A DNA stretch of 64,000 nt, from the IMG/VR virus record IMGVR_UViG_3300006914_000013, positions 1 through 64,000 of that record; one strand, written 5' to 3'. Within the stretch, counting starts at the first letter, position 1, and every line of letters begins with the position of its first letter. Shown here piece after piece: positions 575 through 55,890 of the stretch. The stretch comes from a virus. The translations under genes and the position numbers were made by a program. Below the pieces are notes generated by a model. That model was not told the origin of the DNA. It made no database searches and worked only from the letters and a program-made list of their open reading frames with translations.

Positions 575-955
575 TTACTCTGGCTTTATCGACTGATACG
601 CTTCGACCCCGAGACGTTCAGCCAACCGGCGAACTAACTTCTGCGCCGGGGTCTGAAACTTCAAACTGGACTCTTGGCGGTAGCGCCCGTCGTGCCAGGT
701 GACGTACTCGAAAAGCTCAAGCGCTTCGCGCAGCAGATCGGTGTCGTCATGCTGGAACTCGACCCACTCGCCGATGCGTTTCATGCGGACTTCGAAGTCA
801 TCCGGCAACCGGCTGTGCAACTGGCCGGTGTGGATGTTGCGGTAGATTTTGGTGTCGTGGCCACGGTCGGTACCGGCACCGATGCAGTCGCCCAGTAGTT
901 CGTAGGTGTCGTCTTTGTCGAGGTACTGGTACAGCTGTTTCGGGGTGTTAGGCAT
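575..955 (-). CDS. Hypothetical phage protein (DUF1653-like N-terminus)
   Basis: Y..Y.LLG....IYRN..TGQL.SR...DF..R pattern; overlaps the neighbouring gene. Confidence 0.6.
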   Translation of the reverse strand: MPNTPKQLYQYLDKDDTYELLGDCIGAGTDRGHDTKIYRNIHTGQLHSRLPDDFEVRMKRIGEWVEFQHDDTDLLREALELFEYVTWHDGRYRQESSLKFQTPAQKLVRRLAERLGVEAYQSIKPE

Positions 956-1223
956 TGGTGATTCCCTTCGGTTGGGGGAACAATCCGCGCAGTTCAGGCT
1001 GGTTCATGAACTCGCGAACCTCGGCCAACGTGCTTTCGCTGTCGAACTTTGAGAATAGACGCTGAGCCCGAATATCACCGTCAGCGGTGTCGTCGAAGTC
1101 CAGCCGGATCACGCTCGACACCGCTCCGGGCATGGCGAAACGCAGCTGCACGCAGTGACCATCCAGCGTCACTAGCACCTGCCCGGTGTCCTCGGCCCAA
1201 TAGAGTTTGGCGAATTCTTGCAC
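948..1223 (-). CDS. Hypothetical phage protein
   Basis: GTG start with AGGGAG SD; 8-bp overlap with the next gene. Confidence 0.65.
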   Translation of the reverse strand: MQEFAKLYWAEDTGQVLVTLDGHCVQLRFAMPGAVSSVIRLDFDDTADGDIRAQRLFSKFDSESTLAEVREFMNQPELRGLFPQPKGITNA

Positions 1224-1254
1224 GGTGAAAACTCCCTGTTGTGTGGCTGTCCGT

Positions 1255-1449
1255 TCAGTCGTCGACGGCTTCCGTCACCGCGACTTTTTCCGCCTGTATG
1301 CGGTTGTAGATTTCTTCGCGATGCACTTCGACGCCCTTGGGTGCGGCAATGCCAATGCGCACTTGCAGGCCGCTGACACCGAGCACGGTGATGCGGATGT
1401 CGTCGCCAACCATGATGGTTTCGTGAACGCGGCGGGTCAGTATCAACAT
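1255..1449 (-). CDS. csrA: CsrA/RsmA family translational regulator
   Basis: [48 protein letters not shown] is the canonical CsrA sequence; ATG at 1449 with AAGGAG/AAGGA SD. Confidence 0.96.
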
Positions 1450-1555
1450 TGTCCTTCTCCTTGTTGTTTTGGTGGGCATTCCTGGTACTAGGCGCAGCAC
1501 GTTACATATCTCGTACAAATCTGAACAGATGCTGAACGTAATATTAATTAAATCG

Positions 1556-2011
1556 TTCAAACCCCTGCTCGTTCCCCAAGGTGGGGGTTACAGCACCCGC
1601 AAAGGACGGCCAGAAGCTGGCCCCTTTTTTGCTCCCACTGGCGTGCGAGCCCCTGCGTCCGGCCCTTGAAAAAAGGCCTTCCACATGACTCCACGCAGTG
1701 GGGATTTTCAGGTCAAAACCTGCTCCCACTCCCAGCTGGCGTTCCGCACCTTCGGGGTTTAGCGTTACAAGCGCCCCCGGCCCGTCTCGGCGTGCGGCAA
1801 GTGTGGGATTTGGGACAGTCGACGGCGCCTGTGTCTGGGTAATACGCCGCCCTGCCATTGCCTTCTCGACCCATTTCGGGGTTCGCACACTTGGCTATAC
1901 CGACCCCCCTAAGACGATGATCCTTGTGGGGGGTTCTACGCACTGCGGCCCAATAGGCGAACGAACGCCCCATCTTGATCCAGACGCGCAATGGAAGGGT
2001 TACGGGGTTGA
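1556..2011 (-). ncRNA. Putative large structured RNA (~450 nt), family unrecognised
   Basis: More than 10 nested complementary segments; several mismatches read as G-U only on the minus strand; no credible ORF. Confidence 0.55.
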
Positions 2012-2022
2012 GGCGGGCATGG

Positions 2023-2052
2023 TTGAACACACGAACAATATTCGCGTATACT
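2023..2052 (+). promoter_or_regulatory. Sigma70-like promoter
   Basis: TTGAAC (2023-2028), 18-bp spacer, TATACT (2047-2052). Confidence 0.55.
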
Positions 2053-2057
2053 TTTTA

Positions 2058-2168
2058 GACCCGGTCTCGTATCCCGCCGACGAAAGCAGAATTCCCCGAG
2101 ACCTTGACTGGAGGTGCTTGTAACACCCGCCAGTCCGATGAGCCCTCGCCTAACAGCGGGGGCTTTTT
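2058..2168 (+). ncRNA. Putative small RNA (~110 nt)
   Basis: Lies between the promoter and an intrinsic terminator; stems GGTCTCG/CGAGACC and GACTGG..GGTG/CACC..CCAGTC. Confidence 0.5.
2141..2168 (+). terminator. Intrinsic terminator
   Basis: AGCCCTCGC-ctaaca-GCGGGGGCT hairpin followed by a T run. Confidence 0.75.
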
Positions 2169-2505
2169 CGTTTATGGTCAATAGGATACGGAGCATTAGG
2201 GGGTAAAGACAACCAAGCCTCCATCTTTACCCCCCTTGACATTCACAAAAGTGCCATCAAAAGGCCCGTCTTGTCGGACAATTTCTGGCGCCAAAGCCTT
2301 GTCAGAAAAGGTTCCCAGCACAAGCGAAAAAATAGTTAAAAAACTTTCGCGAGGGGGTCAAAACACCCGGTTTTGAGGCCTCTGTTGCCTCGATTTTGAA
2401 GCAACGCAAAATTTTTTCGCGATCCTGACCTAGTCTTAAACCCAAGGCCGCGAGTGTTTCACCCATCCGAAGACGGCCGAGCTGATTTTCTGCATAGGTC
2501 TCCCC

Positions 2506-53346: not shown

Positions 53347-53613
53347 TCACAGCAGTGCGAGCGAGCTACCACTTAGGTCCCATTCCTGCGCAGCCCACAA
53401 CAGCACGTCTTTCATGGGCAGGCCGGTCTGTTCCGCCACCGGGCGGTAGCGTTCGAACAGGGTCTGTGCGCCCGCTTCCCGAAAGTGAAACTCGGTGCCG
53501 GCACCGCGGTTGTACAGCACCGAGGGCAGCATAAAGTCGATGTCCAGGTACTGCCCTTCCCCGCGAGCTTTTCGACAGGCGGTGAGGATCTGCGTGGCCA
53601 ACGGTGCGTTCAT
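53347..53613 (-). CDS. Hypothetical protein
   Basis: GAGGA SD; coupled to the upstream gene. Confidence 0.6.
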   Translation of the reverse strand: MNAPLATQILTACRKARGEGQYLDIDFMLPSVLYNRGAGTEFHFREAGAQTLFERYRPVAEQTGLPMKDVLLWAAQEWDLSGSSLALL

Positions 53614-54002
53614 GGCTGGTCCTCGATCGGCGGGATTTCGTCGTCGCAGCATTCACACTGCAACGGTTCTGAGTACCGCAGCTCCGTGGCCACCACCCGG
53701 AGCAGGTAACTTTCCGGGTGGCGCAGGCCGTAGAGCAGATCGCGCAGCAGCACGCGCATGCAGCGCCGACAGATCGCCCGGCCTTCGTCGGTGATGCAGA
53801 CGAAGCGCCGGCCTTCCACGGCGTCCTCCAGAAAGCGCAGCGTGGCGCGCAGCTGGTGCCCGTCGCTGATCTGGTAGAACACGTCACGGTAACCGGTGCG
53901 CAGGCGCTTGCCGGTGCGCCGGTCGTACAGATCGCCGTGGACCTCTTCGTAGTGCCCTGGCTGTGGAAACAGGTCGAGCTGGTTACGCGACGGATACCCC
54001 AT
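53610..54002 (-). CDS. Hypothetical protein with CxxC motifs
   Basis: TDEG..IC..C ... C.CC. Confidence 0.65.
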   Translation of the reverse strand: MGYPSRNQLDLFPQPGHYEEVHGDLYDRRTGKRLRTGYRDVFYQISDGHQLRATLRFLEDAVEGRRFVCITDEGRAICRRCMRVLLRDLLYGLRHPESYLLRVVATELRYSEPLQCECCDDEIPPIEDQP

Positions 54003-55125
54003 GACCTGCCCCCTCGGCGTCCATGAACGCTTCTATGAAGACTTGAGCCGCTTGCGCGTTGACGGCATTGCCATAGCCGCGCAGGCGTCCCACTCGGCCG
54101 GGTATCCCATGAGCCAGCGGGAATGTTCCGGCCTCAACTGGCCGCCACTTTCCATCCCGGCAGCCGAGCCAGTCAGCAGTTCGCCAGAAGCCGTTAACCG
54201 GGCCGGGGTGCAGAGGTACGCCTGCCTCGGGAGCTGGTCGTTCCGTTCCCGGCCGTCCCGGGTGGCCACCATGCCCGGGGTGTCCTTGTGGTCCCGGGTG
54301 GTCGGCGTGGTCCAGCCGCACAGGTGATACGACACGACTTCCACCGTCTTGCGGGAGCTGTCGTTGTTCCCCGCTGCGTTGTTGCCGTTCTGCGCTGGCG
54401 TCCCGGCCATCGGCGTCGGCCAGCCCGCGAGCTGGGTGCAAGTGTGCAAGGCCATCCCGCCCTGCTTGTTCGCCGAGTTCCCCGGGCCGTTGGTGTCCGA
54501 GGTCTTGGGTGTCGGCCAGCCTGTCAGCGTTACCGCTGCCGCCAAGTCCGGCCCGTGATTGCGCATAGCTTCCCGCAGACCACCCTCGGGTGAACGCACT
54601 CCCTTGTCGGCCAGGCTGGCTGTTGGCGTAGGCCACCCAGTACAGTCGGTCACGAATGTGCGGCGCACCGACCCCCGCAGACGGGAACGGGACGGCCCCA
54701 AAGGCGTAATCCAGGGCTTCCAGGTTAGCGTGTACAAGGTCGACCCAAGGGTCGACAGCCTTGCTCGCAACTTGCTCTCCAAAAACGACTGAAGGCTTTG
54801 ACTGCTCGATGAGCCAGGCAAAACTTGGCCAGAGGTGTCTTGGGTCCTCAAACCCCGCTCCAATGCCTGCCGCGGAGAAAGGCTGACACGGACAAGATCC
54901 AGTCCAAACAGCCCGGTCATCAGGCCATCCGGCGGCACGCAGGGCATAAGACCAGCCGCCAAGGCCGGCGAAGAAATGGCACTGGGTGAAGCCGAACAGG
55001 TCACGGGGTTCGACATCCTCGATACTCCTTTCATCCACGATGCCGGGGGCGATCAGGCCCTCGGCGATCAGGTTGCGCAGCCATTGCGCAGCGTAAGGGT
55101 CAATCTCGTTGTAATACGCGGCCAC
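53983..55125 (-). CDS. C5 cytosine DNA methyltransferase, alpha chain (no motif IX in frame)
   Basis: YNEID, HFFAGLGGW, GSCPCQPFS (catalytic), GEQV, HIRDRLYWV, RLRGYGNAV. Confidence 0.92.
   Translation of the reverse strand: MAAYYNEIDPYAAQWLRNLIAEGLIAPGIVDERSIEDVEPRDLFGFTQCHFFAGLGGWSYALRAAGWPDDRAVWTGSCPCQPFSAAGIGAGFEDPRHLWPSFAWLIEQSKPSVVFGEQVASKAVDPWVDLVHANLEALDYAFGAVPFPSAGVGAPHIRDRLYWVAYANSQPGRQGSAFTRGWSAGSYAQSRAGLGGSGNADRLADTQDLGHQRPGELGEQAGRDGLAHLHPARGLADADGRDASAERQQRSGEQRQLPQDGGSRVVSPVRLDHADHPGPQGHPGHGGHPGRPGTERPAPEAGVPLHPGPVNGFWRTADWLGCRDGKWRPVEAGTFPLAHGIPGRVGRLRGYGNAVNAQAAQVFIEAFMDAEGAGHGVSVA
54033..55016 (-). CDS. Alternative-frame methyltransferase beta chain with four WPTP modules and motif IX
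   Basis: ~1 kb open in a second frame inside the MTase; AAGGAG SD before ATG 55016; ends GQLRPEHSRWLMGYPAEW. Confidence 0.75.
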   Translation of the reverse strand: MSNPVTCSASPSAISSPALAAGLMPCVPPDGLMTGLFGLDLVRVSLSPRQALERGLRTQDTSGQVLPGSSSSQSLQSFLESKLRARLSTLGSTLYTLTWKPWITPLGPSRSRLRGSVRRTFVTDCTGWPTPTASLADKGVRSPEGGLREAMRNHGPDLAAAVTLTGWPTPKTSDTNGPGNSANKQGGMALHTCTQLAGWPTPMAGTPAQNGNNAAGNNDSSRKTVEVVSYHLCGWTTPTTRDHKDTPGMVATRDGRERNDQLPRQAYLCTPARLTASGELLTGSAAGMESGGQLRPEHSRWLMGYPAEWDACAAMAMPSTRKRLKSS

Positions 55126-55128
55126 GGG

Positions 55129-55347
55129 TCACCCCCACTTCTGCAATTGGACCGAAATGACTTGGTCCGTGGGGTAGTGCTGGGCCAGCCAGAGATAGGC
55201 CGCGTCGTAGTCGGCCGCCAACACCGGCACCTGCCAGCGCCACCCGTTGGGCTGTTCCAGGGTGACCAGGTAATAGTTATGCCGCAGGGCGAAGTGCTTC
55301 GCCCACCAGGCTTCCAGACACGACTTGGCTTGCAGAATCCAGAACAT
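55129..55347 (-). CDS. Hypothetical protein
   Basis: GAGGG SD; operonic. Confidence 0.55.
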   Translation of the reverse strand: MFWILQAKSCLEAWWAKHFALRHNYYLVTLEQPNGWRWQVPVLAADYDAAYLWLAQHYPTDQVISVQLQKWG

Positions 55348-55356
55348 GCCCAGCCC

Positions 55357-55890
55357 TCATGCGTTGGCCAGCAGCTCATTGATTCGTTCAACCAGCACGG
55401 TGGTGGACACCTGCTTGCGCGAGCCCTTCACCAGCTTCACCTGGATCAGGTTGCACAGCTGGCGCAGCAGCGGTTCGACGCTGCCATAGGTGCGTTCCAG
55501 GCGGCGGGTCAGCGAGGTTTCCGGGAATTGCCAGTCGGTGTACTCGCGGCCGTTGACCAGGCGCATGGTCGGCGGCAGGGGCGGCCATACCGCTTCCTGC
55601 GCCTGACTCTCGGCGTTGTAGACCTTCGGGGTGTACGCCGCGCTCACGCTGCGCGGCATCATTGAGCCTTCGGCATCCCGGCCGCCGCCTTCAAACCCGG
55701 GCAGGGCCACGATGCTGTACGTCAGTTCACGATGTTTGACCTGCACGGCCACCGCCAGAATCTCGGTTCCGCACGGCAAGGTGCGCCGCAGGGTGCGCAG
55801 GGTCAACGGCGTGGCCGTGCCTGCTTTAGGGGTGGCGGGGGAGGAATTGACGGGGGGTTCCATGCAAACCAATGGATTCATCATGAACAT
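55357..55890 (-). CDS. Hypothetical protein
   Basis: GGAG SD; coding-like. Confidence 0.6.
   Translation of the reverse strand: MFMMNPLVCMEPPVNSSPATPKAGTATPLTLRTLRRTLPCGTEILAVAVQVKHRELTYSIVALPGFEGGGRDAEGSMMPRSVSAAYTPKVYNAESQAQEAVWPPLPPTMRLVNGREYTDWQFPETSLTRRLERTYGSVEPLLRQLCNLIQVKLVKGSRKQVSTTVLVERINELLANA

Follow-up and report, generated by a model that had tools for sequence, protein, structure and literature searches.

A probable two-polypeptide phage DNA (cytosine-5) methyltransferase read from two overlapping frames of one gene, with combinatorial cassettes in the nested chain

The stretch of DNA analysed here, hereafter the window, comprises positions 1 to 64,000 of the virus record IMGVR_UViG_3300006914_000013, and its minus strand carries a gene in which two reading frames are open over almost the same DNA. 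We propose that this locus probably encodes one orphan phage DNA (cytosine-5) methyltransferase (C5 methyltransferase) composed of two polypeptides read from the same DNA in two frames: an alpha chain (frame A), which holds the catalytic motifs, and a beta chain (frame B), nested within it, which holds four cassettes in tandem. We infer jointly the synthesis of both chains, their association in a complex, the role of the cassettes as target-recognition domains (TRDs), the multispecificity of the enzyme and its function against restriction.

Two overlapping frames in one gene

The listing of open reading frames (ORFs) places the beta ORF (54033-55034) wholly within the alpha ORF (53983-55125). 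Beta is in the +1 frame of alpha and starts ~110 nucleotides (nt) inside it, and the gene has a G+C content of 64.6%. The original prediction, made from the letters of the window, had described the same two same-strand frames, open for ~1 kb, together with a number of landmarks that we recover as it gave them. These are the frame A motifs FFAGLGG, PCQPFS, EQV, R.R and YGNAV; an ATG of frame B at 55016, preceded by an AAGGAG built from rare AGG and AGT codons of frame A; and four GW(P/T)TP modules at 54624-54638, 54507-54521, 54411-54425 and 54303-54317, spaced by 117, 96 and 108 nt. The features of the gene are collected in Table 1.

Table 1. Features of the two-frame gene and their positions in the window (aa, amino acids; AF2, AlphaFold2; pLDDT, predicted local distance difference test score)
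Feature	Position	Strand	Remarks
Frame A ORF (alpha)	53983..55125	-	380 aa; GTG start, 3 nt past the stop of the upstream ORF
Frame B ORF (beta)	54033..55034; inner ATG 55016	-	+1 frame of A; 333 or 327 aa
AAGGAG, putative Shine-Dalgarno sequence for beta	55025-55030	-	8 nt 5' of ATG 55016; alpha codons GAA-AGG-AGT
Alpha aa 1-170, predicted C5-methyltransferase large domain	54616..55125	-	AF2 fold, Foldseek, phmmer
FFAGLGG (motif I)	54955-54975	-	frame A
PCQPFS (motif IV)	54874-54891	-	frame A
GEQV (motif VI)	54769-54780	-	frame A
HIRDR (motif VIII)	54646-54660	-	frame A
Alpha aa 171-310, G/A/P/R-rich linker	54196..54615	-	AF2 pLDDT 33-48
Alpha aa 311-355, conserved NGFWR..DGKWRPVE..FPL (54115-54195) and GYGNAV	54061..54195	-	motif X helix next
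GYGNAV (motif X)	54061-54078	-	frame A
Beta aa 75-126, conserved helix and hairpin ..LESKLRARL..GSTLYTLTWKPWITP..SRLRGSVRRT	54657..54812	-	overlaps alpha motifs VI-VIII
Beta cassette 1, 39 aa, GWPTPTASLADKGVRS...	54522..54638	-	type A; 57 members, mostly first, also inner or last
Beta cassette 2, 32 aa, GWPTPKTSDTNG...	54426..54521	-	type C; not in L004
Beta cassette 3, 36 aa, GWPTPMAGTPAQNGNN...	54318..54425	-	type B
Beta cassette 4, 37 aa, GWTTPTTRDHKDTPG...	54207..54317	-	type D, as is the third cassette of Salmonella phage epsilon15
Beta C-terminal block PARLTASG..LTGS.AGM.SGG and motif IX-like QLRPEHSRWLMGYPAEW (54090-54140)	54090..54206	-	conserved block

Both frames are kept open in relatives

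In tblastn searches of 50,697 phage records, 388 were matched by frame A and 232 by frame B, of which 59 and 78, respectively, at a query coverage of at least 80%, and the matches of the two frames were near full-length, in single pieces and at the same places. We compared 84 loci in detail: the window, three phage records and the best 80 viral contigs of the 213 confirmed among 216 candidates, all chosen by similarity to frame A alone. Frame A forms one ORF across the match in 82 of these loci. Within it no stop interrupts the +1 frame for 786 nt or more, again in 82 loci, as against an open length of only 102-357 nt for the +2 frame, which served as a control. Frame A is interrupted in L012 and L081, and frame B in L039 and L068, where it is open for 528 and 612 nt, respectively.

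The G+C content of the loci is 55-70%, a range in which an open alternative frame is not rare by itself. Stop codons were counted region by region and compared with synonymous shuffles. Over alpha codons 40-165, whose amino-acid sequence is dictated by the catalytic domain, the 84 loci contain not a single +1-frame stop where 145.5 are expected, the chance of finding none in one locus averaging 0.14. Conversely, shuffling frame B synonymously across the cassette region predicts 177.2 frame-A stops in 77 loci (the 84 minus two with a broken frame A, three duplicates and two with a short frame B), and again none is found. The summed log-probabilities, -82.6 for frame B and -100.5 for frame A, overstate independence, as the loci are related. 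These regional stop tests are decisive for the conservation of both frames.

Selection passes from one frame to the other along the gene

The shares of nucleotide differences by codon position, computed on pairs differing by 3-20%, change along the gene. Over beta residues 20-60, 72% of the differences fall on the third position of A and 15% on the third position of B (584 pairs), so that the first ~55 residues of beta behave as a passenger of alpha. The corresponding shares are 44% and 36% over beta residues 61-135 (459 pairs), 11% and 70% in the cassette region (31 pairs), and 37% and 41% over beta residues 286-320 (1549 pairs). The third positions of alpha have an entropy of 1.1-1.6 bits over residues 1-75, 0.8-1.0 over residues 76-165 and 0.45-0.77 over residues 316-345, where alpha overlaps the C-terminal block of beta, and of 1.3 at motif X. 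Along the gene, selection acts on A, then on both frames, then on B, then on both and lastly on A again. Two stretches, the helix-hairpin region and the C-terminal block of beta, are truly constrained in both frames, and in mid-gene amino-acid selection operates on beta only, alpha being just kept open.

The alpha chain: a catalytic domain with a missing small domain

Alpha matches Pfam PF00145 with 49 bits (cut-off 22; expectation value, E, 7.6e-13), its residues 74-171 covering profile positions 65-166 of 324. It also matches phrog_363 over residues 1-372 (E 1.1e-87) and NCBIfam TIGR00675 with 32.7 bits, under the cut-off of 100.65. In phmmer, alpha 71-169 aligns with M.HhaI 72-174 (E 3.4e-11), with PCQPFS, GEQV and IRDR falling on PCQ, ENV and QKRER, and hhalign of alpha against E. 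coli Dcm covers motifs IV-VI at a probability of 77.6%. Here we take PCQ to be motif IV, the ENV-like element to be motif VI and the QxRxR-like element to be motif VIII.

The AlphaFold2 (AF2) model of alpha, built from 76 sequences, is predicted with a pLDDT of mostly 78-96 for residues 1-170, is without structure over residues 172-350 (pLDDT 33-51) and resumes with a C-terminal helix at residues 357-375, after GYGNAV (pLDDT 72-94). Foldseek retrieves M.HhaI (E 3.4e-8) and M.HaeIII (E 3.6e-7) with this model, the alignments spanning just 169-194 columns of bacterial methyltransferase chains of 314-333 residues. In the alignment of relatives, the linker has an amino-acid entropy of 1.6-3.0 bits and many gaps, and the following segment, residues 311-355, contains the invariant columns W314, D324, R328, P336, G352 and N353. 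In a single-chain enzyme, motifs VIII and X would flank the TRD and motif IX; in alpha, residues 172-350 are predicted to be disordered and are unconstrained. Because the homology to HhaI ends at HhaI residue 174 and residues 172-350 appear disordered, we read alpha as a large domain, a tether and motif X, without a small domain. The model thus depicts a C5-methyltransferase catalytic domain followed by a disordered linker and then by the motif X helix.

One relative has a longer alpha homologue (L044:1501-2958), of 486 aa, which continues ~500 nt past the end of its frame B with an extra C-terminal part.

The cassettes of the beta chain are combinatorial

The four cassettes of the window are arranged in the order A-C-B-D. 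Its closest relative, L004, with an identity of 78% in alpha and 81% in beta, has the order A-B-D, and the gap between the two corresponds exactly to the 32-residue cassette 2, the flanks being unchanged. As a strict W.TP pattern under-counts units in relatives, cassettes were parsed with a looser opening motif and two anchors. In the 125 betas parsed, there are two units in 37 proteins, three in 53 and four in 26, with three proteins each having none, one or five; units have a median length of 38 aa, with quartiles of 33 and 42. By community detection, 13 cassette types with at least three members are distinguished. The 125 proteins display 99 different cassette orders, and 30 of the 53 co-occurring pairs of types are found in both orders. 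By single-linkage clustering, 399 of 543 cassettes fall into one large cluster.

The cassettes are thereby combinatorial across relatives. Their free order, together with the gain and loss of single cassettes, fits independent recognition modules such as those of the multispecific Bacillus phage enzymes, and they are probably target-recognition units.

Longer betas, of 367-443 aa, have about five to eight units as counted by eye. Four beta-like proteins of 374-443 aa (P0141, P0163, P0200 and P0264), with about five to eight GW.T. units, carry arrays far longer than that of the window.

The end of beta and the split in Gordonia phage Camerico

Nowhere in beta is conservation higher than in the C-terminal block, where the entropy is 0.49-1.04 and R, G, A, L, P and W columns are invariant. 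The block ends in the motif IX-like QLRPEHSRWLMGYPAEW pattern, which on the DNA lies just 5' of motif X of alpha, ~12 nt before GYGNAV.

Gordonia phage Camerico (L091:1447-2293) divides the enzyme at a different point. Its alpha, which matches PF00145 with 115 bits, ends soon after motif VIII. A single chain of 203 aa, encoded by the +1 ORF (1682..2293), unites one unit, the motif DLSPEFVEWMMGLPRG and ALGNSVVP, the last of these 20 residues farther along; PF00145 gave no match in this Camerico beta. As alpha stops after motif VIII and the beta-frame chain carries the rest, two chains are unavoidable in Camerico. Moreover, since the L.P....W.MG.P motif precedes GNSVVP in that single chain, it sits where motif IX belongs. 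The identity of the beta end with motif IX is unproven, its position and a weak alignment being what suggest it. The Camerico record annotates only 1889..2293, as a hypothetical protein.

Start signals, family and model of beta

Beta appears to have a translation start of its own, made of minority codons of alpha. In 12 large ORFs of the window, AGG accounts for 2.6% of 534 Arg codons, AGT for 7.9% of 584 Ser codons and GAT for 20.2% of 514 Asp codons. Across 79 distinct loci, 67 have an ATG in the +1 frame at alpha codons 37/38 and 41 have one at codons 31/32; a GGAG, GAGG or AGGA lies within alpha codons 32-34 in 51. For Asp37, 67 of these loci use GAT; for Asp42, by contrast, 61 use GAC and 8 use GAT. 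Arg33 is AGG or CGG in 56.

No Pfam or NCBIfam family matched beta. Its matches in PHROGs, phrog_1008 (E 1.1e-33, residues 14-323) and phrog_31772 (E 1.2e-39), are both labelled DNA methyltransferase, a label that for beta-like proteins was possibly inherited from annotation. The family is nonetheless large: 6766 of 8000 candidates scored in a word-index search reached E<=0.001, and an exhaustive search of 1.84 billion cluster representatives returned 11,155 at E<=0.001, 8,500 at 1e-10 and 2,216 at 1e-30. Among the 120 beta matches listed, none has a Pfam domain or a name beyond 'hypothetical protein'. In the ESM Atlas, beta met no named cluster by features and, by structure, only unnamed viral clusters.

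The helix-hairpin region of beta has invariant G, S, L, W and R columns. It includes the sole moderately confident part of the AF2 model of beta (pLDDT 65-80), a helix at residues 70-88 and strands at 95-117 in the numbering of the 327-aa form.

A natural single-chain fusion of alpha and beta was sought among the beta matches; the eight longer proteins fetched were betas with more cassettes. Pseudomonas phage PMG1, matched in pieces, proved to have a broken frame A. In this locus (L088:568-1704), frame A is in pieces and frame B is intact (836..1681, 281 aa) and annotated as DNA methyltransferase; the gene is either decaying or affected by a sequencing error.

Distant members of the family

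The same arrangement recurs in five distant phages: Salmonella phage epsilon15 (alpha 389 aa, beta 338 aa, G+C 58%), Paenibacillus phage Arcticfreeze (352 and 234 aa, 47%), Lacticaseibacillus phage R9.2 (261 and 182 aa, 49%), Stenotrophomonas phage S72 (255 and 199 aa) and Mycobacterium phage Hades (237 and 183 aa). Their +1 ORFs span 184-348 codons, as compared with 27-108 codons in the +2 frame, and such distant nested pairs occur at a G+C content of 47-59%. The small distant members have a single xPTP unit. In the records of Xanthomonas phage PhiXhv-5 and of Arcticfreeze, the depositors annotated both frames; most records annotate alpha alone ('DNA methyltransferase') or beta alone ('hypothetical protein'). 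The nested layout appears to be old and widespread.

Two expectations of the original prediction about homologues are thus borne out. Both frames are preserved, each in 82 of the 84 loci and also in the Paenibacillus, Mycobacterium, Lacticaseibacillus, Stenotrophomonas and Salmonella phages, and the number of modules varies, from 0 to 5 among the 125 relatives, down to a difference of one 32-residue cassette between L004 and the window.

Discussion

Comparison with known enzymes

A nested design of two polypeptides is already known from one enzyme, M.EcoHK31I, an alpha/beta C5 methyltransferase reportedly described by Lee, Kam and Shaw in 1995. As set out in the passages on this E. coli HK31 enzyme in PMC2836561 and PMC3404938, alpha and beta are both needed (target YGGCCR), a different frame of the alpha gene encodes the whole of beta, which holds motif IX and can do without its first 42 residues in vitro, and the TRD is ascribed to alpha. 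Being naturally heterodimeric, the enzyme was chosen as a platform for targeted methylation, according to the relevant part of PMC2836561. The parallel with M.EcoHK31I drawn in the original prediction stands as regards the two chains and the nested frame, which here recurs in 82 of 84 loci, beside an alpha that in the window contains motifs I-VIII and X. The dispensable N-terminus of that beta is also echoed here by the first ~55 residues, which evolve as a passenger. The parallel fails as regards the TRD, which is in alpha there, whereas here the variable cassettes are in beta and the middle of alpha is unconstrained and predicted to be disordered. Our beta is, furthermore, nearly of the size of alpha (327 vs 380 aa), starts ~110 nt after the alpha start and has four cassettes, and the gene is an orphan phage gene, not part of a restriction-modification system. 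M.EcoHK31I may be a small member of the family of the window gene, as far as a comparison by description can tell.

M.AquI (CYCGRG) is, in the passage of PMC3404938 that treats it, another two-subunit C5 methyltransferase. In it, too, a natural split separates motifs I-VIII, on one chain, from the recognition part and motif IX, on the other; as described there, M.AquI differs in that its second chain also has motif X and its first has part of the variable region. A second chain of this type, with both IX and X, is found in Camerico and not in the window, where GYGNAV belongs to frame A.

The multispecific C5 methyltransferases of Bacillus phages SPR, phi3T, rho11 and H2 are single polypeptides with short tandem recognition modules between motifs VIII and IX, the content of which differs between related phages. 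The window gene resembles them in its tandem modules, four of 32-39 aa, placed between VIII and IX and varying between phages. It differs in that their modules share one chain with the catalytic motifs, whereas here the cassettes are in frame B and catalysis would reside in frame A. With M.HhaI, M.HaeIII and E. coli Dcm, alpha shares the fold of the large domain and motifs IV-VIII; the small domain (TRD and motif IX) of these enzymes is not in alpha, and beta has no significant similarity to them. According to the corresponding passage of PMC3404938, it is the small domain of a C5 methyltransferase that makes all specific contacts.

A table in PMC6070908 lists two DNA-cytosine methyltransferase genes per phage, with their overlap left uncommented in that table. 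Our literature search, which had most subscription journals outside its reach, met no description of the nested-frame layout in phage methyltransferases. Relative to the literature found, three things are new: an overlap that is nearly full-length, cassettes that belong to the nested chain and an occurrence in thousands of phage genes.

Alternative explanations

A number of results weigh against the reading of this locus as a two-chain methyltransferase. Folded alone from 114 sequences, beta gives a poor model (pLDDT 56.1; predicted template modelling score, pTM, 0.25), and when it was compared with 48,161 chains in a wide VIA-align fold search, no match reached Z>=5; the highest score, Z 3.6, was for a 58-residue helix-hairpin. 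With a poor model and an empty search, the structural comparisons do not tie beta to the small domain. Sequence comparisons point the same way: PF00145 was found in none of the 114 beta members at E<=10 and in none of five distant betas, the beta profile had no match among PDB sequences at E<=10, hhalign of beta against E. coli Dcm gave a probability of 0.12%, and BLASTP of the beta end against Dcm aligned an irrelevant stretch. The one positive sequence link of the beta end to motif IX, the alignment by hhalign of the beta profile with the Camerico motif before GNSVVP, is weak (18 columns, E 0.0014, probability 17.6%). With respect to the cassettes, 125 of 197 betas were parsed (77 from the loci and 120 database proteins, with possible overlap) and 72 were skipped, and the typing rests on regular expressions written for this analysis. 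Lastly, when whole genes were shuffled 300 times per locus, the observed open length was never reached in 30 of the 84 loci and was reached at a frequency of 0.003 in the window, and in some GC-rich loci it was reached in up to 35% of trials.

One alternative retains the two chains and makes the cassettes a single DNA-binding array for one target, or spacers or decoys, which would leave the enzyme monospecific. Such repeats of one fold would share an opening like GW.TP and would chain into one cluster as 399 of the 543 cassettes do, and AF2 predicts the cassettes to be disordered. We nevertheless regard this alternative as unlikely. An array of that kind accords poorly with the free order of the units (30 of 53 pairs both ways and 99 orders in 125 proteins), with the gain or loss of single cassettes between close relatives in which nothing else changed, and with minimal members that have one xPTP unit, all of which is behaviour that recalls the tandem TRDs of the multispecific Bacillus phage enzymes. 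Several sequences are probably targets of methylation by the two-chain enzyme; the independence of each cassette as a specificity module is unproven.

Beta could, alternatively, be a genuine overprinted protein unrelated to methylation, for example an early or anti-defence protein, with alpha acting alone or together with a host factor. This would explain why searches with beta returned no significant methyltransferase match, be it to a family or to a structure, and why its nearest Atlas clusters are unnamed viral proteins. We consider it very improbable, given that alpha is without everything between motifs VIII and X, which is the part required for DNA recognition according to the passage concerned in PMC3404938. 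In addition, the two ORFs occur together in 82 of 84 loci and in the five distant phages, the beta-frame chain of Camerico itself carries motif X, and PHROGs files beta-like proteins under 'DNA methyltransferase', with the reservation about that label made above.

A double programmed frameshift would read A, move by +1 into B after motif VIII and return to A before motif X, giving a single-chain product. The order of the conserved parts on the DNA is indeed canonical, with I-VIII in A, the cassettes and the IX-like motif in B and X in A, and the IX-like motif (54090-54140) lies just ~12 nt upstream of GYGNAV (54061-54078). Such a product gives no reason, however, for frame B to be open over ~130 codons upstream of the first shift (no stops vs 145.5), for frame A to be open across the cassettes (none vs 177.2) or for frame B to have a Shine-Dalgarno sequence and an ATG. 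No slippery run was spotted at either junction by eye, a systematic scan not having been made, and the Camerico alpha stops after motif VIII, contrary to what the frameshift predicts. We judge it hardly plausible, and we prefer two polypeptides to a single-chain or frameshifted product because stops are avoided precisely where those models need no openness.

That frame B is open by chance in a GC-rich gene, its apparent conservation being a by-product of that of frame A, is excluded despite the G+C content of the gene and the shuffles of some GC-rich relatives, as this is contradicted by the stop counts (none vs 145.5 over 84 loci), by the codon-position shares (70% of mid-gene differences on the third position of B, with frame A unconserved) and by the relatives with an open frame B at 47-59% G+C, and it sits ill with 11,155 beta cluster representatives.

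Proposed mechanism

Returning to an enzyme of two polypeptides, we propose that alpha and beta would be translated separately from one mRNA. Alpha would supply the large domain for S-adenosylmethionine binding and catalysis (motifs I-VIII), completed by the motif X helix, and the linker of ~140-180 residues between them would be a stretch whose sequence is irrelevant but whose frame must stay open. The need to keep motif X on the catalytic chain would be the sole reason why the tether crosses the DNA that encodes the cassettes. Beta would initiate at its own Shine-Dalgarno sequence and ATG and supply the recognition parts that alpha is without. It would dock on alpha through the conserved helix-hairpin, the probable docking part, and the C-terminal block, thereby restoring a small domain, and the cassettes, one at a time, would read the target in the major groove. 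For M.EcoHK31I, the assembly of two such chains into a complete enzyme has been demonstrated experimentally. Between phages, the repeated GWPTP-coding sequence would be the site at which cassettes are swapped, gained and lost. The probable role of the enzyme, an unproven one, is anti-restriction, shielding the phage genome from restriction by the host.

Genome setting

The source genome is that of a complete tailed phage (record of 84,385 bp with direct terminal repeats), whose encoded proteins include a terminase, portal protein, major head protein, tape measure protein, DNA polymerase and primase. The record contains one copy of the methyltransferase gene. None of the seven neighbouring ORFs matched a Pfam family, and so no restriction enzyme was recognised beside the gene.

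Upstream on the same strand, a 72-aa ORF (55129-55347), for which no Pfam family was matched, stops 3 nt before the GTG of alpha, which suggests translational coupling to alpha; a G-rich stretch lies immediately 5' of this GTG. Downstream, also on the minus strand, the ATG of a 130-aa ORF (53610-54002) overlaps the final 20 nt of alpha, and this ORF matched no Pfam or PHROG family. An antisense ORF of 276 aa (54835-55665, plus strand) extends over the 5' part of the methyltransferase gene and over the neighbours upstream of it and is of a kind common in GC-rich DNA.

Implications

Should both polypeptides be produced, two frames of the same ~1 kb of DNA are translated almost throughout, a feature conserved in phages that range from actinophages and Firmicute phages to Pseudomonas phages. 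The gene would then be a natural test bed for the evolution of overlapping genes, as stretches constrained in A only, in B only and in both stand side by side. Because most records annotate only one of the two proteins, the recognition chain is invisible to specificity prediction. We put forward a wider picture as a tentative possibility, one that may well prove wrong in some of its parts. With more than 11,000 beta clusters at 50% identity, this may be the largest set of long overlapping genes on one strand in phages, a family in which a C5 methyltransferase would have become a machine of two chains. Cassettes of free order would each confer one target, and the catalytic chain would read the cassette DNA in its own frame as a tether that is devoid of meaning but obliged to stay open. 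Cassette exchange would reprogramme a multispecific anti-restriction methylase and leave the catalytic chain untouched, and databases would hold just one protein of the two. If the cassettes are independent TRDs, they would form a catalogue of small portable recognition modules for 5-methylcytosine methyltransferases and would account for the way in which phages, temperate and virulent alike, keep pace with host restriction systems, and the family would offer thousands of natural variants of a heterodimeric methyltransferase.

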